64,000 nt of DNA, taken from positions 1,632,001 through 1,696,000 of the forward strand of contig CAVSHF010000003.1 of NCBI GenBank assembly GCA_963727805.1, read 5' to 3'. Under the pieces are notes generated by a model that worked only from the letters and a program-made list of their open reading frames with translations, had not been told where the DNA came from and did no database searches. This document shows, piece by piece, positions 5,846 through 32,821 of the stretch. A program made the position numbers and the translations under genes. The DNA comes from an uncultured Nitrospiraceae bacterium (GTDB taxonomy: Bacteria; Nitrospirota; Thermodesulfovibrionia; Thermodesulfovibrionales; Dissulfurispiraceae). How positions within the stretch are numbered: position 1 is the stretch's first letter; every line of letters starts with the position of its first letter.

Positions 5846-6596
5846 TCAGAAAATCCGTACTCTTCTCGAAGGCGATGCTTCATCGTTTTGATTCCTTCTC
5901 TGTGATAGGCTGTACCCTTTTGTCCTGATTCGCACAGCCATCATTATTTTTTCCGGAGACAACCCCATATGTGTAAGTCCTTGATGTCGCTGATGTCCAC
6001 GAAATTCATGTAGATAAATCTTCTGGCATCCTCCGGGTCTATTTTGGCAGGGTTGCTTGCCATTGGTATATGAAGGCTTTCTCTGATCAAAAAAGTACGT
6101 CGGATAAGCAACGAGCAACCCTATCAGTACACCGTTAAGAGGATCGACGAAATAAAGGCCGGTGAATTTTATGATAATAGCGGATATTATAACCCCAACG
6201 GAGTCTGGCAGATCATTCAATATTAGCATCGTTGCGCCCTTGAGGTTGATGTCCGCAGTATGCTTATAAAACATCAGTAATCCTTAAGCATTAACAGCCA
6301 GGCCGATTACGGCGATCAGGAGAATCTTATCTGCTTCTAAAGGCTCGGGATGAAGTATTTTGTCGTAGGCATCGAAAAAAATATGGAAGAGAAGAAAACC
6401 GGACAGTACCTTTGCCCTTTCGTATCCGGAGGTCTTGGTACTCGTCGGGGATTTTTCTGAGAGCCACGAGACATAGAAAGCCATGAATGAGGCATAGGTG
6501 ACAAGCGCGAGGCTGTGGTAATAAATACCACCCAATAACTCGACGAAGAAGTATGGTGTTTGCAATGAGAACCGATTCTTGAAATTATGTAGCCAT
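5846..6596 (-). pseudogene. Degraded CzcD/ZitB-like cation diffusion facilitator
   Basis: CDF motifs split over two ORFs: FFVELLGG...SLALV, GYERAKVLSGF, IAVIGLAVNA* and NLKGA...ND..DSVGVIISAII...VDPL; internal stop, frameshift near the 3' end, apparent deletions. Confidence 0.75.
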
Positions 6597-6808
6597 AATC
6601 TTTTCCGATCTTGATTAAAATGTGCTTTAAAAACGTTAATCGCGTTCCGTCCATTATTTCTCATTACTTGCCTAAGGACAGCGGTCACTTCGATTGCTGC
6701 GGATGTCAGGTAAGTAATGAAGGAAGTAATGGACAAGGGATAGAGGTACATACTATTTTTAGTTATAATACAATTAGAAAAAAGCACAGAATGCGCGGGA
6801 GGCATGTG

Positions 6809-7090
6809 ATGGGAATTCTTGACAATGGACTTAAAGGTAATATTTTCACAGGGCTTGCTATCGGGATTGGGGCAGCTGTGCTGGGGCCAGCCATCCTGCC
6901 TGTTATAGTTGGCGCCGCAAAACCCATAGTAAAAGCTGCAATAAAGGGTGGCATCCTCCTTTATGAAAAAGGAAAAGAAAACTTCGCAGAAGTCGGTGAG
7001 GTCCTGGAAGACATGGTTGCAGAAGTGAAGGCTGAGCTTGCAGAAACCGGTGAACAGGTCGCGACCCCTCCGCCCCCCCCAGAGGCATGA
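6809..7090 (+). CDS. DUF5132-type (FezA-like) small protein: GxxxG hydrophobic segment plus acidic helix
   Basis: GLAIGIGAAVLGPAILP...KPIVKAAIKGGILLYEKGKE...EDMVAEVKAE; GGGAGG SD before ATG 6809. Confidence 0.8.
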   Translation: MGILDNGLKGNIFTGLAIGIGAAVLGPAILPVIVGAAKPIVKAAIKGGILLYEKGKENFAEVGEVLEDMVAEVKAELAETGEQVATPPPPPEA

Positions 7091-7581
7091 TACCAGAAGC
7101 GCACATAGTTCATCGATCTTCCAGGCGGCTGCGACTCAAGATGCCGGTGAAAAAGTACCGCGAAGATTATCTAAAGGCACTGCCTGAAAAGCTGGCCGGC
7201 TGCCCCGGAATAAGCGAGATTGAAATCAACCCGGTTACCGGAAGCGTTCTTGTCAAACATGACGGTAATACGAAAGACATCATCGATTTCGTACGGTCCA
7301 AGGGCATATTTACAATAAAATTCAGCTCGGTGAGACCGCCGTCTGTTCATCAGAGCATAACGTCAGTCTATCGCAACCTTGACGGACTTGTGCAATCGTT
7401 TTCGAACGGCTCTACGAATGCAGGCGGCCTTGCTTTCCTGGGACTCATTGCATTCGGTGCCATCCAAATCGGAAAGGGAAACTTTGCAGCTCCTGCGTGG
7501 TACACAGTCTTCTGGTATGCGATGAATATTTTCCTAAAGTCGCAACCCGATGAAGCAGGCCCCGATATCGACGCAGAGTAA
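7087..7581 (+). CDS. HMA_2/CoBaHMA-domain membrane protein (FezC-like architecture)
   Basis: HIVHRSSRRLRLK...NPVTGSVLVKH HMA-like fold without CxxC; C-terminal hydrophobic GGLAFLGLIAFGAIQIGKG..APAWYTVFWYA; ATGA overlap with the upstream gene. Confidence 0.75.
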   Translation: MIPEAHIVHRSSRRLRLKMPVKKYREDYLKALPEKLAGCPGISEIEINPVTGSVLVKHDGNTKDIIDFVRSKGIFTIKFSSVRPPSVHQSITSVYRNLDGLVQSFSNGSTNAGGLAFLGLIAFGAIQIGKGNFAAPAWYTVFWYAMNIFLKSQPDEAGPDIDAE

Positions 7582-7691
7582 CATCACGATATTTAACATG
7601 GAGGTCACAGCAGTGATGGTAATCTTTTGTTGCTGTCCAGGATAAGGCGGAGCTAACAGTCAATAATTCATTGTTCCAAAGGAGGAATAAA

Positions 7692-8363
7692 ATGGCAACC
7701 AAAGCTGTAAAAAAAGAGAGCGTCAAAGAGGAAGTCGGCAAGGCGGGATCCAGCGTCAAGGCGGGCATTATCAGCAGTCTGAAGGGGATCAACGAGATTG
7801 AGGCTGAGATCGTCAGTCTCGTCCGTAACACCGTCTCCAACGCATTGCGGGCTACAGGGTCTGTTGCAGGTGAAGGCTTGGAGATTACCAAAGATGTCAT
7901 AAAGGGCGCGATTCAGGCGACAGAAGAAGTCGGCACTGGCCTCATCCTGAGCACCAAGAACGTGGCTAAGGGAGTGGTGATGGGCGTGAGCGATGTTGGC
8001 GGAGATGTAGTCCATGTTGCTTCGCAGACGGTTAAGGGCGCTGTCAAGGGCGCTGCCGAAATCGGAGCCGATGTTGGCCTTGTTGCTAGAAGGGCCGTCG
8101 ACGGGGTTATCGAAGCAGCCAAAGAGACGGGCGGAAACGTCGAAGAGGTTGCAAAAGTCGCCGTAGGCGGAGCAATCGAAGCTGCCGGCACGATCGGCAA
8201 TACGGCTGTGAAGGCAGTCAGGGAAATGCTCGTCGGTGTGGTGGAGGGAGTCAAAGACATCGCTTCAACTGCCTTACCCAAGAGCAGGGAAACTGCCTTA
8301 GCACCTAAAAAGACCCCATCGCCCGAGGTGACATCCAAAAGAAGTCGGCGTAAAGGAGCATAA
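7692..8363 (+). CDS. Gly/Ala/Val-rich protein of about 8 tandem 22-residue helical repeats (copy 1)
   Basis: Repeats such as KDVIKGAIQATEEVGTGLILST / KNVAKGVVMGVSDVGGDVVHVA / SQTVKGAVKGAAEIGADVGLVA; AGGAGG SD; paralog at 27011. Confidence 0.8.
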   Translation: MATKAVKKESVKEEVGKAGSSVKAGIISSLKGINEIEAEIVSLVRNTVSNALRATGSVAGEGLEITKDVIKGAIQATEEVGTGLILSTKNVAKGVVMGVSDVGGDVVHVASQTVKGAVKGAAEIGADVGLVARRAVDGVIEAAKETGGNVEEVAKVAVGGAIEAAGTIGNTAVKAVREMLVGVVEGVKDIASTALPKSRETALAPKKTPSPEVTSKRSRRKGA

Positions 8364-8369
8364 GAGTCA

Positions 8370-11300
8370 GTGGTCAGGGCCGTCCATTGGGCTGTAAAAG
8401 GCAGGGTTCGCTTTAAAGTGGACGGCCTCCGCCACTCCGAGGCGCTTAGGCGTCATATCGAGAGTGCTCTGTATGGCAAAGAAGAAATCACTATTCTTTC
8501 GATTAATACGGTGACCGGGAGTGTACTTGTTGCATACAACTCCGGCAATACATGGCAATCGGTAACGCCGGTTCTCGAAGGGATTGTGTCGGAATATGGA
8601 GCCGGCTCTGAGGCAGCAAAACATGTACAAAGCGGTAACGGAAAGAAAGAGGCTGATGCGCAAACAACGGGCAGACGTCTGTCTTCTTCCTCCGAAGCCC
8701 ACAATCTTCAGAGCAGGAGAAAACTCAGAAACCTCGTTGTCCATGCGGAAGATCAGCCGGAAGAGAAATGGCATAATCTCGAAGCGGATACCGTTCTTCG
8801 CCTCGTTTCTGCCGATGAAGACCTGGGCCTTTCCGATGAAGCAGCACAGCAGCGCCTAAAAAAATACGGCCCCAACATGCTTCCTGAGTCAGTGCCTCGA
8901 TCGGGGTTCAGCATCTTCATAGAGCAGTTCAAATCGTTGCCCGTAGCGCTCCTCGGAGTTGCGGCGGCAGTGTCGGTGGTTACAGGCGGTGTTGCCGATG
9001 CTATTGTCATTATGGCGGTAGTCGTAACGAATGCGGCAATAGGGTATGCAACCGAGAGCCAGTCTGAAAAGACAATCAATTCCCTGAAAAGCCTCGTAAG
9101 ACCGACCGCCTTTGTCATCAGGAACAGCAAGATACGCGAGATAGCAGCTGAAGGGGTCGTACCCGGCGATATCATCGCACTCAGGCCCGGGACATATGTG
9201 CCTGCCGACGCACGCCTCATCGATGCCAGCCGTCTCAGCATTGACGAATCGACCCTTACCGGAGAAAGTCTGCCAGTCGTGAAAAGTACTGCTGCCTTGA
9301 TCCAAGGCAATAAAGCTAACGGTAACAATGAGATCCCACTCGGCGACCGCACAAACATGGTCTATATGGGCACGATCGTCACAGGGGGTCAGGGTGCCGC
9401 TGTGGTAATCGCCACGGGGCGATATACTGAAATCGGACACATTCAGACCCTCGTCGGCTCTGCAAGGCCCCCTGAAACTCCGATGGAAAGACAGCTCGAC
9501 CGGATGGGTGGGCAACTCGTACTTATAAGCGGCGCCGTCTGCGGGATCGTTTTTCTGATCGGCCTTTTGAGGGGATACGGTTTTCTCCAGATGCTCAAGA
9601 TATCCATTTCCCTCGCTGTTGCAGCAGTTCCTGAGGGACTGCCCACAGTCGCAACGACTACGCTATCTCTCGGCATACGCAGGATGAGGAAACACAACGT
9701 ACTCATTCGCCATCTCGACGCAGTTGAGACGCTCGGTTCTGTCCAAACGATATGCATGGATAAGACAGGAACCATCACCTTGAATCGCATGTCTATTGTT
9801 GCGTTGCATACTGGGAAAAAACAGGTCCGGGTAGCCGACGGTAAGTTTTTCCATGGCTCCAAGATTCTGAATCCTTATGAATGCGACGAACTTCTGAGGC
9901 TTCTGCATATTGCCGTCCTTTGCAACGAAAGCGATGTAAGACGGTGCACCCCACAAGAACCTTGCGGGGGACCGGTTGTGGATGTGAAGGGAATGGGCCT
10001 TGCTGTTGGAATGATGCAACAGCACATGGTGAGCGGCTCGTCCACCGAAAACGCCCTTATTCATATGGCCCTCGCAGCTGGTATCGATGTCATTCAGCTC
10101 AGGAAAAAGTTTGTGATTGCTGATATCGGACACCGCGCGGAAATGCGTAATTTTATGACCACAACACATAGCGTACCCGATAACAGGAAACTTGTCGCCT
10201 TGAAGGGCAGTCCAGGCGAAGTGCTACAGATGTGCGATCGACATATCGTGGATGGCAAGATACTTCCTCTCACCGAGGACGACAGAATGAACATAGAGAT
10301 TGAAAACGAAAGAATGGCTGGAAATGCTTTGCGGGTCCTGGGCCTGGCTTATAAGCTGCTTGAAAATGAAGAGAATGATACCGATAGTCTTCAGGTGTTT
10401 ATCTGGCTCGGTCTTGTAGGAATGGCCGATCCGGTTAGAAACGGCGTCGGTGACGTCATTGAAGTTTTTCACAGGGCGGGGATCGATACCGTAATGATCA
10501 CCGGCGATCAGAGCTCTACAGCTTACGCCATCGGCAAGGAGCTGAACCTGAGCAAGGGTGAGCAGATTGAGATACTCGACTCGACCCATCTCACCGACAT
10601 AAGTCCTGAGGTACTCAAAGCCCTCTGCAAAAAAGTTCATGTATTTGCGAGAGTCAGCCCTGCTAACAAACTCCAGATCGTCCAGTCTCTGCAGTCCGCA
10701 GGTAGGGTTGTGGCAATGACAGGTGACGGCATCAATGACGGGCCAGCGCTAAAGGCTGCCGACATCGGAATAGCAATGGGGCACACTGGAACCGATGTAG
10801 CACGCGAAGTAGCAGATGTCGTTTTGGAAGACGACAATCTTGAAACGATGATCATCGCAATCAGCCAAGGCAGGACGATCTACAACAACATCAGAAAATC
10901 GGTCCATTTCCTGCTCTCAACTAATTTGAGCGAGATCATGGTCATGTTCACCTCCATTGCAGGCGGGTTGGGGCACCCGCTGAACGCTATGCAGCTCCTG
11001 TGGATCAACCTCCTTTCGGACATTGCCCCTGGCCTTGCACTGGCTCTTGAACAGCCTGAGCCCGATGTGTTGATGAGGCCACCGAGAGACCCAGGAGAAC
11101 CTATTATCAAGACATCTGATTTCAAGAGGATAGGCTTCGAGGCGGCGATGCTCTCTGTAGGCTCTATGTCAGCCTATCTTTACGGCATAACGCGTTATGG
11201 CATAGGTCCGAGGGCCAGCACAATGGCTTTTATGAGTCTCACCTTTGGCCAACTCTTTCATGCTTATAGCTGCAGATCCGAAACTCACAGCCTATTCGAC

Positions 11301-11564
11301 AAAGGGAAAATGCCGACCAATCCATATTTGAACGCAGCCATCGCCGGGTCCATGGGGCTTCAGGTACTCGCCATGGCTGTACCCGGCCTGAGGACGCTTC
11401 TTGGAATCACACCGATAGGCTTATTTGACAGCTTGGTCATCGGCGGCGGTGCAGTCTTGCCGCTCCTTGTCAATGAAGCTACCAAGTCAAAACCGAAAGA
11501 AGAGGATAAGAAGCATTCTTCTATCATCTTGCCGGACGGGCTCGTAATTGCCGACTCCGTTTAG
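8370..11564 (+). CDS. P2A-type (Ca2+-ATPase-like) P-type ATPase with an N-terminal HMA_2/CoBaHMA domain
   Basis: TGES, AVAAVPEGLP, DKTGT, KGSPGE, MITGD, TGDGINDGPAL, STNLSE, QLLWINLLSD; N-terminal VHWAVKGRVRFK...NTVTGSVLVAY. Confidence 0.92.
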   Translation: MVRAVHWAVKGRVRFKVDGLRHSEALRRHIESALYGKEEITILSINTVTGSVLVAYNSGNTWQSVTPVLEGIVSEYGAGSEAAKHVQSGNGKKEADAQTTGRRLSSSSEAHNLQSRRKLRNLVVHAEDQPEEKWHNLEADTVLRLVSADEDLGLSDEAAQQRLKKYGPNMLPESVPRSGFSIFIEQFKSLPVALLGVAAAVSVVTGGVADAIVIMAVVVTNAAIGYATESQSEKTINSLKSLVRPTAFVIRNSKIREIAAEGVVPGDIIALRPGTYVPADARLIDASRLSIDESTLTGESLPVVKSTAALIQGNKANGNNEIPLGDRTNMVYMGTIVTGGQGAAVVIATGRYTEIGHIQTLVGSARPPETPMERQLDRMGGQLVLISGAVCGIVFLIGLLRGYGFLQMLKISISLAVAAVPEGLPTVATTTLSLGIRRMRKHNVLIRHLDAVETLGSVQTICMDKTGTITLNRMSIVALHTGKKQVRVADGKFFHGSKILNPYECDELLRLLHIAVLCNESDVRRCTPQEPCGGPVVDVKGMGLAVGMMQQHMVSGSSTENALIHMALAAGIDVIQLRKKFVIADIGHRAEMRNFMTTTHSVPDNRKLVALKGSPGEVLQMCDRHIVDGKILPLTEDDRMNIEIENERMAGNALRVLGLAYKLLENEENDTDSLQVFIWLGLVGMADPVRNGVGDVIEVFHRAGIDTVMITGDQSSTAYAIGKELNLSKGEQIEILDSTHLTDISPEVLKALCKKVHVFARVSPANKLQIVQSLQSAGRVVAMTGDGINDGPALKAADIGIAMGHTGTDVAREVADVVLEDDNLETMIIAISQGRTIYNNIRKSVHFLLSTNLSEIMVMFTSIAGGLGHPLNAMQLLWINLLSDIAPGLALALEQPEPDVLMRPPRDPGEPIIKTSDFKRIGFEAAMLSVGSMSAYLYGITRYGIGPRASTMAFMSLTFGQLFHAYSCRSETHSLFDKGKMPTNPYLNAAIAGSMGLQVLAMAVPGLRTLLGITPIGLFDSLVIGGGAVLPLLVNEATKSKPKEEDKKHSSIILPDGLVIADSV

Positions 11565-11620: not shown

Positions 11621-12805
11621 ATGAAGAAAGATTTCATGTTTACTTCTGAATCTGTGACAGAGGGACATCCCGACAAACTATGTGATCAGATTAGCGACGC
11701 CATCGTCGACCATTTTCTTCAGAAAGATCCGTTCTCAAGGGTCATTGCCGAATGCGCGGTATCGACGGCAATAGTATTCATTGCGGCCAGATTTAGTTCA
11801 GGTGATTCGGTGGACTTTCCAGGCATTGCACGTCAGGTCATCAGCCAGGTGGGATATGACCAAAATACATTCAATTCAAAGACCTGCAGCATCTTGACGA
11901 GCCTTAAAGAACTTCCTGAAGAAACAAATCGCTTCGACGAAAATGACCTAAGCGATGAAGAGATCGAGAAAATTACGGTAAAAAACCAGGTGACGGTCTT
12001 CGGTTTCGCCTGCAATCAGACGTCTGCGCTCATGCCCTTGCCGATATGGCTCGCACGGAAGCTCTCACGTAGACTTGCGTCGACACGGCTGCAGAGAATT
12101 CTCCCTTATCTTTCGCCTGACGGTAAGACACAGGTGGGGATCGAGTACCGTGACCGCAAGCCCAGGCGCATTCACAGCATTACGCTTATCGCAAGCCAGA
12201 ATATCGAAGGAACTCCCAATCTCAGGCGCCTTAGAGATGAAATGCGGGAAACCGTCATAGAACCGGCATTTCAGGATGAAGAAATAAAACCCGACAGCGC
12301 TACGAGGATATTCGTAAATCCCGACGGGCCGTTTATCATAGGCGGACCTTCAGTTCATTCGGGCCTTACCGGCAGAAAAAATGCAATCGACACCTACGGC
12401 GAATACTCCCGTCACAGCGGGGCTGCCCTGAGCGGCAAGGACCCTATGAGAATAGACAGGGTGGGAGCCTATATGGCTCGCTATGCGGCAAAGAACATCG
12501 TCGTGGCAGGCCTTGCAGACGAATGCGAGGTGCAGCTCAGCTATTCAATCGGCCTCTCCCGCCCGGTGAGCATTCAGATCGAGACTTTTGGTACCGGCCG
12601 GATTACAGATGACGAGATTGCGTCGCTCGTTGAAAGGCATTTTGACTTCCGGCTCGCCGCTATAGTGAAACAGTTCAGACTCAGGCTTCTTCCGTCAATC
12701 GTAAAGGGTGGTTTTTATCGGAAGCTCGCGGCTTACGGTCATGTTGGCCGTATGGATATTGGCTTACCCTGGGAACTGACAGATCGAGCGTCTCTCCTTA
12801 AATGA
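11621..12805 (+). CDS. metK: Methionine adenosyltransferase-family protein, divergent paralog
   Basis: FTSESVTEGHPDKLCDQISD, DGKTQV, GLTGRK, SGKD, AAYGHVGR; the GAGDQG signature is replaced by TVKNQV. Confidence 0.85.
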   Translation: MKKDFMFTSESVTEGHPDKLCDQISDAIVDHFLQKDPFSRVIAECAVSTAIVFIAARFSSGDSVDFPGIARQVISQVGYDQNTFNSKTCSILTSLKELPEETNRFDENDLSDEEIEKITVKNQVTVFGFACNQTSALMPLPIWLARKLSRRLASTRLQRILPYLSPDGKTQVGIEYRDRKPRRIHSITLIASQNIEGTPNLRRLRDEMRETVIEPAFQDEEIKPDSATRIFVNPDGPFIIGGPSVHSGLTGRKNAIDTYGEYSRHSGAALSGKDPMRIDRVGAYMARYAAKNIVVAGLADECEVQLSYSIGLSRPVSIQIETFGTGRITDDEIASLVERHFDFRLAAIVKQFRLRLLPSIVKGGFYRKLAAYGHVGRMDIGLPWELTDRASLLK

Positions 12806-13122
12806 ATTTTGGCAAGACAAAGATGTTAAAAAAAGCTTTATCCGAACGTATAGAACCGGTCGGTTGCGTCGAGAAGACCTCTGTTCCCAACAATGCCGCA
12901 CTTAATTCCGCGCATCGCAACGCAATCAAAGCACTCGCCGATCACTTAGGGATAGCGGTCGAAGATGTCTACAGACTGTATTGCATTGTTCTCAACAGAA
13001 TTGCGAAGGAAGCGAAAATTAAAGATTATCTCCCCATTCTTGTCAGCAGAAGAGTAAGTTACCTGATCCAGAAGAAAATAAAGATGAGCCTGCGAGCTGG
13101 CAGGATGATAAACCTGTCGTAG
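12802..13122 (+). CDS. DUF3562-like small three-helix protein
   Basis: AIKALADHLG...EAKIKDYLPILVSRRV pattern; overlaps the stop of the MetK paralog. Confidence 0.6.
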   Translation: MNFGKTKMLKKALSERIEPVGCVEKTSVPNNAALNSAHRNAIKALADHLGIAVEDVYRLYCIVLNRIAKEAKIKDYLPILVSRRVSYLIQKKIKMSLRAGRMINLS

Positions 13123-13140: not shown

Positions 13141-13512
13141 CTAGATAAGCATTGCTAGCAATGCGAGGGGCGTCCCCTCAAGAACGGTACCGAGGACCGA
13201 ACCGAGGACTGACCTCCCGATAAAACTGCCCGCTTTGGAAGCCGCGCCATGAATGTATTCATCATGCGTTAATGCTTTGGACTTGTCGAAGTATCCCTTC
13301 CGGTCAAGCAGATTGACGATATCTTCATGTTTGATAACTTTATGATTGTAATTTATAAGTAGACTGCCGGTCGTCAGGTTGACGTCTACGGTAGCTATTC
13401 CGTTTATCGCACCGAGAGTCTTGCGCACCTCGTACAATGCATTTTCGTTTTTCTTTAAGATGGGGCTTTTGATCCTGAGCCGTCCTGGAACATTGTGGAT
13501 GTAATAGTTCAT
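13141..13512 (-). CDS. Stand-alone HMA_2/CoBaHMA protein with a Gly-rich hydrophobic C-terminal helix
   Basis: YYIHNVPGRLRIK...NLTTGSLLINY; tail GSFIGRSVLGSVLGTVLEG; ATG overlaps the stop of the 13512-13811 gene. Confidence 0.8.
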   Translation of the reverse strand: MNYYIHNVPGRLRIKSPILKKNENALYEVRKTLGAINGIATVDVNLTTGSLLINYNHKVIKHEDIVNLLDRKGYFDKSKALTHDEYIHGAASKAGSFIGRSVLGSVLGTVLEGTPLALLAMLI

Positions 13513-13811
13513 CAGTTTTCCACCTTCTGAGCAATTTTTATGTATGTTCGGCACTGAGGGTAATTCGCACACCTGAATGTCAGCATATTACCACCCCTCA
13601 CATTGAGGTGAGTGTGCCCACCACAGTTGGGACAGAGGGGTTTGTTTCTAACCTCCCTCCGGATTGCGTCGGGAGTGAACTGTCGTCCGCAGATGAGGCA
13701 AAGGAATCGCTGCTTACCATTCTTAATTCTGCCGTTCTTGTAGAGAGCGCCGGAATTACACACAGGGCAGTGTAGTTCAGTTTGAGCTCCCTGTTTGCAT
13801 ACGGCTTCCAT
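13512..13811 (-). CDS. Double zinc-ribbon protein (IS1 InsA-like ribbon plus topoisomerase-type C4 ribbon), copy 1
   Basis: CPVC..LYKNG..KNGKQRFLCLICGRQF; CPNCG...FRCANYPQCRTY; paralog at 31126. Confidence 0.75.
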   Translation of the reverse strand: MEAVCKQGAQTELHCPVCNSGALYKNGRIKNGKQRFLCLICGRQFTPDAIRREVRNKPLCPNCGGHTHLNVRGGNMLTFRCANYPQCRTYIKIAQKVEN

Positions 13812-15477: not shown

Positions 15478-17913
15478 ATGACACATCTTTATAAAGCAGA
15501 CCTTCATGTGCATTCAAGGTTTTCTAACAAGCCTTCTATTTGGGCACTCAGAAAATTGAACTGCCCCGAAAGTTATACCTTACCGGAAAGCATCTATAGA
15601 ATTGCCCTCAAAAAGGGGATGGATTATGTAACCATAACCGACCATAACACGATAAACGGTTCACTTGAGATTGCCCACCTGCCGGGTACTTTCATTAGCT
15701 CGGAGATAACTACCTACTTCCCTGAGGACGGCTGTAAGATGCATGTCGTTGCACTCAACATCACTGAGCGCAGTTTTGACGACATCATGCACTTGAGAAA
15801 AGACATCTATGAACTCGTGGCCTATCTTCAAGGAAATCGTATCGCCCACTACATCGCTCACCCGCTGTATGATATGAACGGGCGGATTTCGGCTGAAACA
15901 ATCGAGAAGTTGGTGCTTCTCTTCGATGTCTTCGAGACAAAGAACGGCTCACGTTCTCAGCGATACAACCAGATGGTATCCAGTATCCTCGATTCTCTTG
16001 ACGAAGACAGGTTGGCGAAACTGGCTGACCGGCACGGGATCTTACCATATGGACAATCACCGTGGATGAAGGGTTCCGTGGGAGGGTCAGACGACCATAG
16101 TGGCTTTTTTGTAGCGAGGGCATACACGGTATCCCCGGCAGGAAGGTCCATTGATGAGTTTGTTGGCTCAATATCGGACCGTAACAGTCTGCCCGCCGGT
16201 GACGATGGTGACGCTATGATGCTGGCACACAGCATCTACGGCATCGGTTACCGCTTCTTCAAGGAAAAGTTTGAGAAGAAAAAGATCAATTCCATGCCGT
16301 TTGTCAAAGCCCTGATGAAGCAGGTCATGAATACAGATCGCAGCGGAATGCTTCTAATCGAGAGGTTGCAGTTGTTTATCAGGAAGAACATACCGGAGAT
16401 GTATACCGGGCTTGAGGGTAGGACATTCGAGGAGATCATCGACCGGGAGGCGCGCATACTCCTGAACGACCCGAGCTTCCTATCGAGCATAAGCGTCGAG
16501 GATATTAACAGACGTGTTTTCACTGTGACGAGCTACCTCATCAACAGGCTCATATATATATATACAAATCAGATGATAAAGACATGTTTGTCGATGAGCA
16601 TAATGAATCTTGCCAATTCACTAAGCAGCATAGGGTTCATACATCTTCTTGCATCTCCTTATTACCTCGCGTTTCACCATCAGCACCGAAGCAAGGCTCT
16701 GCTGGCGGAATTAGAGACTCGTTTCCTTGCGGAGATCAAATCACCTTTACCTCAGAAGATCGCGCTTTTTACCGATACGCTCCATGAGATAAACGGGGTG
16801 GCGATAACCATAAAGCGTCTTATGGAAAAGGCCAGGAGAGAAGGTGTCGAACTTGTGGTCATTACCTCGAGCCCGGACGAAACATCCTTCAATAACGGCA
16901 TTATGAATTTCAAATCCTTCGGCATGTTCGCACTACCTGAATATCCGGACCTTAAGCTCCATTTCCCGCCCATCCTCGATATTATCGATTATGTGGAAAA
17001 GGAAGGCTTTACGCGGTTTCATGTCAGCACGCCCGGAACTGTAGGTCTTATTTCCCTTCTTATTGCGAAATTGATGGATATCCCCATATCGGGCACTTAC
17101 CACACCGACATCCCGCAATATGTAAAAAGCCTCACTAACGATGCATTCCTAGAGGATGTCGCCTGGAGTTATATGATCTGGTTCTACAATCTCATGGAAG
17201 AGGTGATGGTACCATCTGCAAGCACACGTAAGCAGCTCATCGAAAAAGGTCTTGTTGCGGACAAGGTGCGTCCCCTTCCCAGATGGGTCGATACCGAATT
17301 TTTTACACCCATAAAAAGAGACCCCTATCTATGGACACGGCAGGGGCTTTTCGGCAGGGTGAAGTTCCTTTACACCGGCAGGGTTTCGCGGGAAAAGAAC
17401 CTTGAGCTCCTCTCACAGGCATTCAGGGCGATGATAGACGCCGGCCTAGATGGTGACCTGATTATCGTGGGAGATGGACCGTATCGGCAAGAGATGCAAG
17501 AGCAGATGAAAGGCTATCCGGCAATCTTCACAGGCTTTCTTACGGGAGAGGATCTCTGTATTGCATATGCTTCTTCCGATGTCTTCGTCTTTCCGAGCAC
17601 TACTGACACCTTCGGCAATGTGGTGCTGGAGGCCCAAGCATCCGGCCTCCCTGTCATCGTATCCGACGAAGGTGGACCAAAGGAACTGATGAAAGACGGC
17701 GTAACCGGCCTTTCGATATCTTCCAATAATCTCGATGCCCTGATCAATGCCATGAGCTTCTTCGTGAGCGAGCGCAGCCTTATTAATACTATGGGGGCTA
17801 ACGCCCGGCATTTTACCGAAAATCATTCAATTGATGTGAGCAATGCATACAGCACCATACTCAGGAGCAAGCCTTGCCGAACGCCGCTCGAAGACGCCAC
17901 CATGACCGCATGA
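15478..17913 (+). CDS. PHP-domain / GT4 glycosyltransferase fusion protein
   Basis: ADLHVHS, TITDHN, AHP, GGSDDH (PHP); FTDT...NGVA, YHTDIP, GRVSREKN, FPSTTDTFGNVVLEAQASGLPV (GT4). Confidence 0.9.
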   Translation: MTHLYKADLHVHSRFSNKPSIWALRKLNCPESYTLPESIYRIALKKGMDYVTITDHNTINGSLEIAHLPGTFISSEITTYFPEDGCKMHVVALNITERSFDDIMHLRKDIYELVAYLQGNRIAHYIAHPLYDMNGRISAETIEKLVLLFDVFETKNGSRSQRYNQMVSSILDSLDEDRLAKLADRHGILPYGQSPWMKGSVGGSDDHSGFFVARAYTVSPAGRSIDEFVGSISDRNSLPAGDDGDAMMLAHSIYGIGYRFFKEKFEKKKINSMPFVKALMKQVMNTDRSGMLLIERLQLFIRKNIPEMYTGLEGRTFEEIIDREARILLNDPSFLSSISVEDINRRVFTVTSYLINRLIYIYTNQMIKTCLSMSIMNLANSLSSIGFIHLLASPYYLAFHHQHRSKALLAELETRFLAEIKSPLPQKIALFTDTLHEINGVAITIKRLMEKARREGVELVVITSSPDETSFNNGIMNFKSFGMFALPEYPDLKLHFPPILDIIDYVEKEGFTRFHVSTPGTVGLISLLIAKLMDIPISGTYHTDIPQYVKSLTNDAFLEDVAWSYMIWFYNLMEEVMVPSASTRKQLIEKGLVADKVRPLPRWVDTEFFTPIKRDPYLWTRQGLFGRVKFLYTGRVSREKNLELLSQAFRAMIDAGLDGDLIIVGDGPYRQEMQEQMKGYPAIFTGFLTGEDLCIAYASSDVFVFPSTTDTFGNVVLEAQASGLPVIVSDEGGPKELMKDGVTGLSISSNNLDALINAMSFFVSERSLINTMGANARHFTENHSIDVSNAYSTILRSKPCRTPLEDATMTA

Positions 17914-25777: not shown

Positions 25778-26395
25778 ATGCACCATTTCTTATATACATT
25801 TTTCATTGCTTTAACAAACAACTTTGATAATATCGGAGTCCGGATAGCGTACAGCATCCGAGGAATAAGGATATCCACTCTGATAAATCTGTGGATATCT
25901 GTAATAACCTTTGTCATTTCTTTTTTTGCTGCATTATCGGGGACAATAATATCGAGATTTCTGAGTCAGAAACTCTCGTCGCTGCTAGCGATGTTGATAC
26001 TCACTGCTGTCGGATTGTGGATGATATTAGAGCCTTACATAAAAAGAAACAATATTTGTAATGATGAATCTGACCAGACTAGCAAGAGCGGTGCCTGCCA
26101 CGTTATCCTGAATCCCCAACATGCTGATATGGATAATTCAAAACATATCGATTTCAAAGAAGCGACTCTGCTTGGCATTGCGCTGTCGATAAATAATGTT
26201 GGAGGAGGGTTGAGCGCCGGGATGATCGGCCTAAACTCTTTTTGGGTGGGATTCTTGTCTGCAGTACTGAGTTTTCTAGCCCTGTGGGCGGGAAACTACG
26301 TTGCAGAATTATTTATAAAATGGAACATAGCAAAGAGAGCCGCAGTCGTAGCCGGTCTGTTATTAATCGCTATCGGTATAGAACAAATCATTTAA
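25778..26395 (+). CDS. MntP/YtaF-family membrane protein (putative Mn2+ efflux)
   Basis: NNFDNIGVRIAY, ADMDNSKHIDFKEATLLGIALSINN, AGLLLIAIGI; about six hydrophobic segments. Confidence 0.8.
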   Translation: MHHFLYTFFIALTNNFDNIGVRIAYSIRGIRISTLINLWISVITFVISFFAALSGTIISRFLSQKLSSLLAMLILTAVGLWMILEPYIKRNNICNDESDQTSKSGACHVILNPQHADMDNSKHIDFKEATLLGIALSINNVGGGLSAGMIGLNSFWVGFLSAVLSFLALWAGNYVAELFIKWNIAKRAAVVAGLLLIAIGIEQII

Positions 26396-27010: not shown

Positions 27011-27613
27011 ATGAAGAACGAGGAAATCAAAAAGGAAAGCGTTAAAGCAGATGTGGGTAAGGCTGGATCCTCTGTTAAAGCGGGCATTATCAATAGTCTG
27101 AAAGGCATCAATGAGATTGAGGCTGAGATCGTCAGTCTCGTTAGGGATACCGTCTCCAATGCCATTCGGGCCACAGGGTCTGTTGCCAACGATAGCATCG
27201 AGATTACCAAGGATGTTGTAAAAGGCTCTCTCCAAGCTACCGAGGAAGTCGGCACCGGTCTTATCCTCAGCACCAAGAATGTGGCCAAGGGTATAGTCAT
27301 GGGAGTGAGCGACGTCGGCGGTGATGCAGTCAAAGTTGCTTCCCAGACGGTTAAAAGTGCTGTCAAGGGTGCCGCTGAGATAGGTGCGGACGTTGGCCTT
27401 GTTGCCCGAAGGGCTGTGGATGGCGTCATCGAAGCGGCCAAGGAGATAGGTAGTAACGTAGATGATGTGGCAAAGAGTGCTGTCAGCGGAGCAATCGATG
27501 CGGCGGAGACTATAGGCAATACTGCTGTCAAAGCTGTTAAGGAAATGCTTGTCGGCGTGGTAGAGGGCGTCAAAGAAGTCGCTTCTGCCGCCTTGCCAAA
27601 GAATAAGACGTAG
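27011..27613 (+). CDS. 22-residue-repeat Gly/Ala/Val helical protein (copy 2)
   Basis: Near-identical core to 7692-8363 but lacking the basic C-terminal tail; GGGAGG SD. Confidence 0.82.
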   Translation: MKNEEIKKESVKADVGKAGSSVKAGIINSLKGINEIEAEIVSLVRDTVSNAIRATGSVANDSIEITKDVVKGSLQATEEVGTGLILSTKNVAKGIVMGVSDVGGDAVKVASQTVKSAVKGAAEIGADVGLVARRAVDGVIEAAKEIGSNVDDVAKSAVSGAIDAAETIGNTAVKAVKEMLVGVVEGVKEVASAALPKNKT

Positions 27614-31621: not shown

Positions 31622-31785
31622 TGTAACATGATTGTAACATCAGCGTAATACGCCCTTAACTGTGAGGTTTTATAATTAATTACTTGCATCACGAAAGAGA
31701 TGAGATTCCACTAATACGGGGAGGTGACATTTTAACTCAAATGTAATAGTTTTGTAACATGGCTGTAACATTTTATGTATACTCT
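31622..31785 (+). promoter_or_regulatory. Two tandem Pho-box-like promoters upstream of pstS
   Basis: TGTAAC 31622, TGTAAC 31633, CGTAAT 31644, CTTAAC 31655, 10 nt, TATAAT 31671; second set TTTAAC 31731, TGTAAT 31742, TGTAAC 31753, TGTAAC 31764. Confidence 0.8.
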
Positions 31786-31810: not shown

Positions 31811-32821
31811 ATGAAAACAATCTTCAAGTTAGCAGCGATAAGTATCTTGATCCTGTGTTCCGCTACTGTATGGGCAGTCGAAACTCTAAACGGCGCGGGG
31901 GCTTCATTTCCCTATCCTGTATATTCTGCATGGTCCTTTGAATACAATAAGGCCACTGGAGTCCAGCTCAACTACCAGTCAATCGGGTCCGGTGGAGGTA
32001 TCAGGCAGATCTCAGAAAGGACCGTTGAGTTTGGCGCATCTGATGCACCGCAAACCCCGGAATTTCTCCAGAAGAATAACCTGATACAGTTTCCCGCGGT
32101 AATGGGTGGAGTTGTTGCCGTAGTCAACATCGCGGGCGTCAAGGCCGGCCAGATGAATCTCGACTCTGATGCAGTCTGCAAAATCTATCTCGGCGAAATC
32201 AAATTCTGGGACGATGCAAAAATTAAGTCGATGAATTCTAAGATCAAGCTGCCGCACAAAGAGATCACGGTTGTACACAGATCAGACGGATCCGGAACTA
32301 CTGCAATTTTTACTACCTATCTCAGCGAAGCATGCCCTGCGTGGAAGGAAAAGGTCGGTGCCGGAACGTCGGTAAAGTTTCCTGTAGGAATTGGCGGCAA
32401 AGGCAACGAGGGAGTATCGAACTACGTCCAGAGAAGTAATGATTCTATCGGTTATGTCGAGTTCGCTTATGCAGAGCAGAACAAATTGTCATACACACTA
32501 CTGAAGAATCCTGCCGGTCATTTCGTTGCGCCCAGCTTCCAGACCTTCGAAGATGCAGCCGCCACAGGCGACTTTGACCCCAAGAAGGATTTCTACCTCT
32601 GGCTCGTCAATGCCAAAGGCAAAAACGCATGGCCCATCGCCGGCGCAACCTTTATTTTACTCGCTAAAGACAAAAAGGACGCCAATATGAAGACCGTCAA
32701 GTTCTTCGACTGGGCATTTAAAAATGGCGATGCTAAGGCAAAAGAGCTCGTCTATATCCCGCTGCCGAACTCATTGAAAGACAAAATCAGAGCCTATTGG
32801 AAGGCAAACGGAATATACTAA
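31811..32821 (+). CDS. pstS: Phosphate ABC transporter substrate-binding protein
   Basis: GAGASFPYP, YQSIGSGGG, FGASDAP, HRSDGSGTT, GGKGNEGV. Confidence 0.97.
   Translation: MKTIFKLAAISILILCSATVWAVETLNGAGASFPYPVYSAWSFEYNKATGVQLNYQSIGSGGGIRQISERTVEFGASDAPQTPEFLQKNNLIQFPAVMGGVVAVVNIAGVKAGQMNLDSDAVCKIYLGEIKFWDDAKIKSMNSKIKLPHKEITVVHRSDGSGTTAIFTTYLSEACPAWKEKVGAGTSVKFPVGIGGKGNEGVSNYVQRSNDSIGYVEFAYAEQNKLSYTLLKNPAGHFVAPSFQTFEDAAATGDFDPKKDFYLWLVNAKGKNAWPIAGATFILLAKDKKDANMKTVKFFDWAFKNGDAKAKELVYIPLPNSLKDKIRAYWKANGIY

Follow-up and report, generated by a model that had tools for sequence, protein, structure and literature searches.

The methionine adenosyltransferase (MAT) fold has, to our knowledge, a single known job, which is to make S-adenosylmethionine (SAM), and the P-type pumps that we know of run on ATP. 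The stretch of DNA analysed here, 64,000 nucleotides from an uncultured Nitrospiraceae bacterium and referred to as the window, carries a MetK-like gene next to the gene of a P2A-type cation pump, and each product is altered at its nucleotide- or substrate-binding site. We propose, with a probability of about 40%, that the MetK-like protein is a subunit handling tripolyphosphate (PPPi) and pyrophosphate (PPi), which would feed or gate a pump that has lost its tuning to adenine.

In described MATs (EC 2.5.1.6; TIGR01034; E. coli structures 1RG9, 7LL3 and 8BB1), with residues numbered as in E. coli MetK without Met1 (reference sequence from NC_000913), E55 and D238 bind methionine by its amino group, Q98 and K269 by its carboxylate and I102 by its side chain, while F230 stacks on adenine and D163 and D238 hold the ribose (PMC3853416, PMC1282579; here and throughout, papers are cited for what excerpts of their text state). 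The second step of the reaction is the hydrolysis of PPPi to PPi and phosphate (PMC8715544, PMC6850014). Among P-type pumps, F487 is part of the ATP cleft of SERCA (PMC7313052) and F445 of MgtA stacks on adenine (10.1101/2024.02.28.582502).

The features of the locus that bear on these sites are as follows, in coordinates of the window:

8370..11564, + strand: P2A-type cation pump, 1064 residues, with an N-terminal HMA_2/CoBaHMA domain; DKTGT (D464), TGES, TGD and GDGIND present, membrane site invariant
10038..10040, + strand: codon of pump S557, the Asp of the GDPTE motif in other P2 pumps; Ser or Thr in 99/99 partner-type pumps, Asp in 39 and Glu in 2 of 41 controls
10134..10136, + strand: codon of pump R589 at the adenine-stacking Phe position, the F of the PF motif, which we take to be SERCA F487; Arg in 99/99 partner-type pumps
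11621..12805, + strand: MetK-fold paralog, 394 residues; Mg/K/triphosphate ligands kept, methionine ligands changed to R57, K121, H246 and R277
11789..11791, + strand: codon of R57 (E. coli E55, methionine amino-group ligand; role from PMC3853416); Arg in 81/81 paralogs, Glu in 32/32 canonical MetKs
12356..12358, + strand: codon of H246 (E. coli D238, ligand of the methionine amino group and ribose O3'; roles from PMC3853416 and PMC6850014); His in 81/81 close and 73/74 broad-set paralogs
12449..12451, + strand: codon of R277 (E. coli K269, methionine carboxylate ligand); Arg in 81/81 close and 73/74 broad-set paralogs

The open reading frame 11621-12805 (+) is preceded by a Shine-Dalgarno-like AAAGGAGG, and its product contains three S-AdoMet_synt Pfam domains, scores above the TIGR01034 (metK) cut-off (381 versus 309.4) and is labelled methionine adenosyltransferase in databases. 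The AlphaFold model, built from a 108-row alignment with canonical MetKs among its rows, has a predicted local distance difference test (pLDDT) value of 97 and superposes on E. coli and other MATs with a template modelling (TM) score of ~0.90 and a root-mean-square deviation of ~2 Å. As in MATs, all Mg/K/triphosphate ligands are present. Of the binding-site residues, H16, D18, K19, E44, D167, K169, F238, R252, K253, K273 and D279 are kept and correspond to E. coli H14, D16, K17, E42, D163, K165, F230, R244, K245, K265 and D271. The preliminary description of this DNA had listed all of these except K17 as retained, and alignment to E. coli MetK agrees with it in every case, as it does for each substitution claimed. 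Compared with MATs, E55, Q98, I102, G117, D118, D238 and K269 are replaced (E55 by R57, Q98 by L98, I102 by T102, D238 by H246 and K269 by R277; GAGDQG reads TVKNQV at 119-124 and HGGGAFSGKD reads HSGAALSGKD), the acidic gating loop is longer, there is a seven-residue insert near 355-364, and F230 is not conserved among the paralogs, which form a separate, long-stemmed clade with a fixed link to a pump gene. Judged by its methionine site, the 11621-12805 protein is not a member of MetK.

The substitutions are a property of a family. A scan of GTDB genomes returned 424 related stretches, of which the best 80 were taken as genome loci. The lineages that these are named from include Nitrospirota, Brocadia and further Planctomycetota, Deltaproteobacteria (Geobacteraceae, Syntrophorhabdus, Binatia), Acidoferrales, Chromatiales and numerous cyanobacteria. 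In a close set of 81 paralogs and 32 canonical MetKs, the positions of E55, D238 and K269 hold R, H and R in 81/81 paralogs and E, D and K in 32/32 canonical sequences; the same substitutions in canonical MetKs, which the preliminary description had named as an observation that would speak against it, are thus absent from all 32 rows. Moreover, G258 is replaced by Ser in 81/81 paralogs and G117 by Lys or Arg in 67/81, and Q98, S99 and I102 are lost; E42, D163, K245, K265 and D271 are kept in 81/81, R244 in 80/81, and H14, D16 and K17 in 80/81, the remaining row being cut. With distant members added, a broad set of 74 paralogs was compared with 58 canonical rows. Here H14, D16, K245 and K265 are kept in 74/74, K17, E42 and R244 in 73/74 and D271 in 71/74; E55 is replaced by Arg in 59 and His in 8, K269 by Arg in 73, and D238 by His in 73, His at 238 being the residue by which the set was sorted, with one row added by hand. 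None of the methionine ligands E55, Q98, I102, D238 and K269 is the majority residue in the clade, and Q98, S99, I102, G117, D118, T227 and R229 are mostly missing. The preliminary description was therefore right that the changed positions are mainly those that bind methionine and that the triphosphate and Mg ligands are kept. Of the adenosine contacts, D163 is found in 73/74 but F230 in 31/74 and S99 in 3/74, and T227 is mostly replaced by D, E or G; K165 is kept in 56/74. Retention of F230 holds for the protein of the window but not as a family trait, since the residue is present in only 62/81 close and 31/74 broad paralogs. Taken together with the published roles of the methionine ligands, the conserved R/H/R substitutions suggest that a pocket for a zwitterion has turned cationic, and the drift of F230 that adenine stacking has been relaxed.

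The 74 broad paralogs form one clade apart from the 58 canonical rows (FastTree support 0.864, stem 0.58), and the family is spread over several phyla. Between the gene of the window and its nearest relative (L003), nonsynonymous divergence (dN) is 0.09 and synonymous divergence (dS) is saturated (~2.5). Because R57, H246 and R277 are invariant in 81/81 close paralogs and dN is low against a saturated dS, the substitutions reflect neither chance nor decay; a pseudogene is ruled out on the same grounds, and by these sequence measures the clade evolves under purifying selection.

The status of the gene as a paralog, assumed in the preliminary description, is borne out by a canonical metK beside ahcY on another contig (C5) of the same genome, which excludes that 11621-12805 is the only metK there, a second observation that the preliminary description had named as contrary to it; the two products are 45% identical. 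When the genomes of 50 of the 80 loci were searched with the canonical protein, 48 contained a second, higher-scoring metK match, and all 30 second copies fetched keep E55, Q98, D238 and K269. The MetK-like protein is almost certainly not a SAM synthetase. Among the canonical MetK matches, many long ones (in the range P0128-P0240) carry intein and LAGLIDADG domains (PF14890, PF14528), and several of these are named from DPANN archaea.

The preliminary description had placed the protein in the service of the adjacent pump, and gene order bears this out. A P2A-type pump gene lies 5' of the paralog in 79/80 genome loci, the exception beginning at a contig end, with a spacing of at most 60 base pairs (bp) in 51/79 and overlapping genes in 26. 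Of 80 metagenome loci (49 paralog, 31 canonical), the pump is 5' of the paralog in 39/49, eight are cut by a contig end and two do not fit (L187, intact, and L195, a truncated piece); no pump of this kind is found 5' of metK in the 31 canonical loci. In a sample of 151 genomes from the host phylum, pump (at least 55% identity) and paralog (E 1e-125 or better) were found in an identical set of 27 genomes, as neighbours in 27 of the 28 copies, though kin among them are not independent. It is very probable that the MetK-like protein works with the pump. Pump and paralog distances correlate (r 0.89, 60 pairs), which is not counted as co-evolution since shared descent explains it. Three of 120 longer proteins listed (P0124, P0125, P0151) join pump and paralog in frame; each occurs once, with a junction unlike that of the others that takes out membrane helices, and we regard all three as probable deletions or assembly joins and give them no weight.

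Nine genomes (G030, G032, G036, G038, G039, G046, G047, G050 and G158) each have two paralog-level matches, and where this could be seen (L056 and L068 of one Fischerella genome, and G158) each copy has its own pump. At L187 (5992-9494) the intact paralog is followed by a P2-like protein of 657 residues that has no N domain and reads GKTG for DKTG. A plasmid search at E 1e-120 gave no match.

The pump resembles P2A Ca2+/Mn2+-ATPases (SERCA; SPCA1, 8IWP; LMCA1, 6ZHF; TIGR01522, TIGR01116) in its transport and phosphorylation machinery. Across 72 pumps, each position of DKTGT, TGES, TGD and the GDG, N and D of GDGxND is found in 72/72, as is the hinge motif, and PEGL and the ion ligands of M5 and M6 are likewise invariant. 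E422, N852, E855, N880 and D884, which we match to SERCA E309, N768, E771, N796 and D800 (N768 and N796 being presumed numbers), are each present in 72/72, and the position taken as SERCA E908 is Gln in 61/72. The intact ligands and motifs would fit transport of Ca2+ or Mn2+; the best PDB matches are SPCA1 and LMCA1.

The nucleotide-binding site differs. Position 589 is Arg in 99/99 partner-type pumps, whereas the 41 P2 pumps compared with them, of which the phylum sample gave 38 and the loci 3 (four MgtA-like or N-domain-less rows set aside), have Phe in 40 cases and Tyr in 1; the PF motif reads HR, YR or PR, and the residues listed for 588 and 589 include no Phe. The GDPTE Asp is Ser or Thr, TGDH has become TGDQ and the K492 position is mostly lost, and compared with P2A ATPases the pump further has the N-terminal CoBaHMA domain, a MetK-fold partner and scores below the TIGR01522 and TIGR01116 cut-offs. 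In a tree with 120 further database pumps, built from columns that exclude the N domain, the 171 Arg-bearing pumps form one clade (support 0.87), and the 86 rows outside it have Phe (84), Tyr (1) or a gap (1). Profile-profile alignment with hhalign gives a gap-free register with R589 on the Phe, the preceding Pro being kept in nine members, and pairwise phmmer also places R589 on the Phe of SPCA1. The relaxed adenine contacts of the paralog family and the loss of the adenine-stacking Phe from the pump both go beyond the preliminary description.

Both partners have weaker adenine stacking, have gained basic residues and have kept their phosphate chemistry, and the simplest shared ligand would be a short inorganic phosphate chain. 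In the mechanism that we propose, with pocket geometry taken from homology and the cited papers, the rebuilt cationic pocket (R57, H246, R277 and often K/R121) would hold an extra phosphate group, and the protein would still run the second half-reaction of MetK, from PPPi to PPi and phosphate, with no SAM made; alternatively, it may free PPPi from a nucleoside triphosphate (NTP). Docked on the cytoplasmic head of the pump, it would supply PPi or PPPi for phosphorylation of Asp464, with Arg589 filling the adenine slot, and Ca2+ or Mn2+ would be moved. The parts of this scheme differ in strength. Direct contact between the proteins is reasonably probable, and catalytic activity of the MetK-like protein on a phosphoanhydride is, from its conserved residues, slightly favoured. 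A preference of the pump for a donor other than ATP, as its altered N domain hints, is considered doubtful, and the full scheme of a P-type pump phosphorylated by PPi or tripolyphosphate from a docked MetK-fold enzyme with triphosphate chemistry only is likewise tentative.

Retained phosphatase activity has a precedent: seven MAT1A patient variants, among them D258G at the D238 position and a K289 substitution at the K269 position, have lower SAM synthesis and unaffected phosphatase (PMC6850014, citing an earlier study), and the substitution pattern of the paralogs would be expected to spare PPPi hydrolysis as well. The pump may in turn be compared with PPi-dependent kinases (the TM0415 ribokinase family, PPi-phosphofructokinase, Entamoeba acetate kinase), whose signature is an ATP pocket filled by a large or basic residue together with added basic residues (PMC5931981). 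Those enzymes are, however, soluble and of unrelated folds, and the donor switch proven there is suggested here by one main residue. Docking is weakly predicted for paralog residues 3-390 and pump residues 240-845, with a score of 0.50 against 0.00 for the best of three controls; the mark for this score is reached by 116/157 solved and 2/215 mismatched pairs, but values that reach it and do not exceed 0.60 come from just 18/157 solved pairs and from both mismatches. At least 86% of contacts are shared between the runs, partner pLDDT is at least 85, and we know of no solved complex of a MetK with a P-type pump that the prediction could recall.

Several observations weigh against this scheme. 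With LMCA1 and Na,K-ATPase the phmmer register is offset by one position, so that H588 falls on the Phe; position 588 is His or Tyr in 139/177 and could stack on adenine instead, and Arg itself is able to stack on a purine. The other nucleotide-site residues of the pump, E560, K612, R655, L657 and R761, are kept in 72/72. In the paralogs, the ribose ligand D163 is kept almost throughout, with K165 less so, which points to a nucleotide ligand but would also fit PPPi cut from an NTP. Use of an inorganic phosphoanhydride by P-type pumps is disputed, an older claim for PMCA being cited beside the negative result that polyphosphate does not drive SERCA (PMC13594633). PPK1 occurs in just 1/27 pair-bearing genomes, and neither PPK1, PPK2 nor CYTH was found in the genome of the window; long polyphosphate is therefore disfavoured as a general substrate. 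The interpretation in the preliminary description is supported in part, as regards the paralog, its lost methionine site and its tie to the pump, and is weakened in its polyphosphate branch. An H+-PPase is present in the same genome, and the donor may be PPi of the cellular pool or PPPi released from an NTP. Finally, the 6 kb upstream of the intact paralog L187 contain no Arg-type pump, and in two genomes an Arg-type pump was found with no paralog, which makes these operons natural controls for the pump's need of a MetK-like partner:

L114:5097-8132 (G124): Arg-type pump operon that has no MetK-like gene
L115:4092-6656 (G112): the same, with the pump gene in pieces

The G124 and G112 pumps are more distant members of the same clade, with full-length relatives that are named Thermodesulfovibrio.

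The pair is embedded in a larger operon, with these further features in the window:

6707..6720, + strand: conserved upstream motif with the core AGGTAAGTAATGA, just 5' of a sigma70-like -35/-10 of the operon (promoter-like site 6730-6759)
6809..7090, + strand: small membrane protein with DUF5132, encoded by the operon's first gene; 93 residues from the second ATG
7087..7581, + strand: HMA_2/CoBaHMA-domain protein, 164 residues
7671..8363, + strand: Ala/Gly/Val-rich helical-repeat protein, 230 residues, conserved in the operon, no Pfam or NCBIfam match
12802..13122, + strand: DUF3562 protein, its start overlapping the paralog stop codon (ATGA)
13141..13572, - strand: convergent HMA_2/CoBaHMA protein that recurs beside the operon

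Operons of Nitrospirota and Deltaproteobacteria hold the pair together with DUF5132, HMA_2 and helical-repeat proteins, and most cyanobacterial loci consist of pump and paralog alone; CDF (11 loci), PstS (11), CorA (9) and MgtE (6) genes are neighbours in a minority. The 14-base upstream motif matches in at least 12/14 letters in 34/41 operon upstream regions (mean of shuffles 0.13). With one mismatch it recurs in the window at 6707-6720 (+), ~26908 (+), 31689 (-), 25430 (-) and 6673 (-), and 40 times genome-wide; one copy precedes a second helical-repeat gene and one is divergent from pstS, and the motif may mark a local regulon. That second helical-repeat copy (27011-27613, +) lies away from the operon and is 85% identical over 181 residues to 7671-8363. 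A CDF cation-efflux gene (5846-6805, -), divergent from the operon, is split into two or more frames, and several relatives have intact CDF genes 3' of the paralog. Two further genes are found close to the pair in a few relatives as well: 15478-17913 (+), in which an N-terminal region that we take to be PHP-like, there being no Pfam hit, is fused to a GT4 glycosyltransferase, and an MntP-family gene (25778-26395, +). Direct repeats GTAACA-N5-GTAACA with 11-bp spacing (31623-31639 and 31754-31770) stand 5' of pstS (31874-32818), which is followed by pstC and pstB, and they are likely to be the Pho boxes of this lineage. A scan for Pho boxes of the E. coli type gave no signal over the operons (2/41 versus 1.0 in shuffles).

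The main alternative reads the evidence in terms of regulation. The MetK-like protein would then be a slow or non-catalytic subunit of an ATP-driven pump that senses a phosphorylated nucleotide, such as guanosine pentaphosphate (pppGpp), and switches the pump by phosphate or energy status; we consider this unlikely, though deserving of serious weight. The 5'-triphosphate of pppGpp would occupy the kept Mg site, and its 3'-pyrophosphate the cationic pocket, which sits beside the 3' position since D238 contacts ribose O3' (PMC6850014). Conservation of D163 agrees with a nucleotide, and K165 is dispensable in 18/74. Human S247, the counterpart of T227, bonds adenine N1, and T227 is Asp or Glu in 197/201 close rows, as a guanine reading would predict; in the broad set, however, position 227 is Asp or Glu in just 54/74 and F230 drifts, so that a base reading is not conserved. 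The existence of pumps with no paralog (G124, G112) would suit a regulator, and GTTACA-type 11-bp repeats 5' of 11/41 operons (shuffles 0.66) and of the pstS of the window would suit phosphate control, but this repeat pattern was picked after viewing the sequences and was not found upstream of the window's own operon. Sensing also leaves the invariant Phe-to-Arg change of the pump unexplained.

An active adenosyl (or nucleosidyl) transferase, with an anionic acceptor (phosphate, pyrophosphate, carboxylate or sulfate) and a signal or cofactor of the operon as its product, is improbable. The acceptor site is cationic and invariant, and H14 and D163 are kept in 74/74 and 73/74; however, Q98, S99 and I102 of the gating loop are lost together with G117, and gating-loop mutants of E. 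coli MAT lose more than 200-fold in SAM kcat (PMC6850014). K165 and F230 are variable, and no recurrent downstream enzyme is found among the 45 most frequent neighbour clusters.

Slightly less probable still, and partly compatible with the phosphate-chain reading, is a role in a ferrosome-like, membrane-bound mineral body, with the pump loading Ca or Mn and the paralog releasing phosphate or PPi to precipitate it. The operon shares with ferrosome (fez) clusters, PacL/P1B efflux platforms and the ccyA neighbourhood a P-type ATPase whose N-terminus is R-rich and HMA-like, a GxxxG membrane protein (here DUF5132) and R-rich HMA-like (here HMA_2) proteins (10.1101/2020.01.10.902569), HMA_2 being another name for CoBaHMA, and in Microcystis ccyA is flanked by DUF5132 and CoBaHMA genes (10.1101/2024.07.07.602159); the transporter and PstS genes counted above would also fit. 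In the fez and PacL systems, however, the pump is of the P1B type (with D[Y/F]SCA and HNxxT as FezB motifs), and that of the window, with its best scores to P2A models and structures and its PEGL, NxxE and NxxxD membrane motifs, is not a FezB-type P1B-6 ATPase. The accessory genes are absent from most cyanobacterial loci, where pump and paralog are still paired, and a soluble protein would free phosphate on the cytoplasmic side. A MetK-like gene was not found in the excerpted descriptions of the fez, PacL/P1B and ccyA systems, the fez and ccyA preprints do not use the word 'adenosyl' in their main text, and adenosyl, MetK and ATPase go unmentioned in that of 10.64898/2025.12.07.689555.

A second true SAM synthetase, for which the TIGR01034 score and the database names would speak and in which methionine would be held by other residues, as archaeal MATs bind its carboxylate by His/Asn, is very improbable, since archaeal MATs still bind the amino group by the Asp that corresponds to D238 (PMC3853416), both amino-group acids have become R and H here, and most host genomes searched hold a higher-scoring metK match, with E55, Q98, D238 and K269 intact in all 30 fetched.

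The MetK-like family and its pairing with the pump are real, conserved and, as far as searched, undescribed: literature listings and the opening parts of abstracts, with most subscription journals outside this search, gave nothing on the family or on a P-type pump driven by PPi or PPPi. Under any of the explanations considered, many 'methionine adenosyltransferase' database entries would be wrong and the family would add a new type of partner for pumps. In lineages that range from Nitrospirota to cyanobacteria, a MAT-fold protein and a pump remain adjacent and have changed together, with adenine-stacking aromatics relaxed or lost and basic residues gained. The question of phosphoanhydride-driven pumps can be put to a direct test in this clade, which has hosts in culture (Chlorogloeopsis fritschii PCC 6912, Fischerella thermalis PCC 7521) and offers a control that differs by one residue. 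If the phosphate-chain reading is true, the pair, now mis-annotated as metK and Ca-ATPase in at least six bacterial phyla, would be the first P-type pump that does not run on ATP and the first job of the MAT fold other than SAM synthesis.
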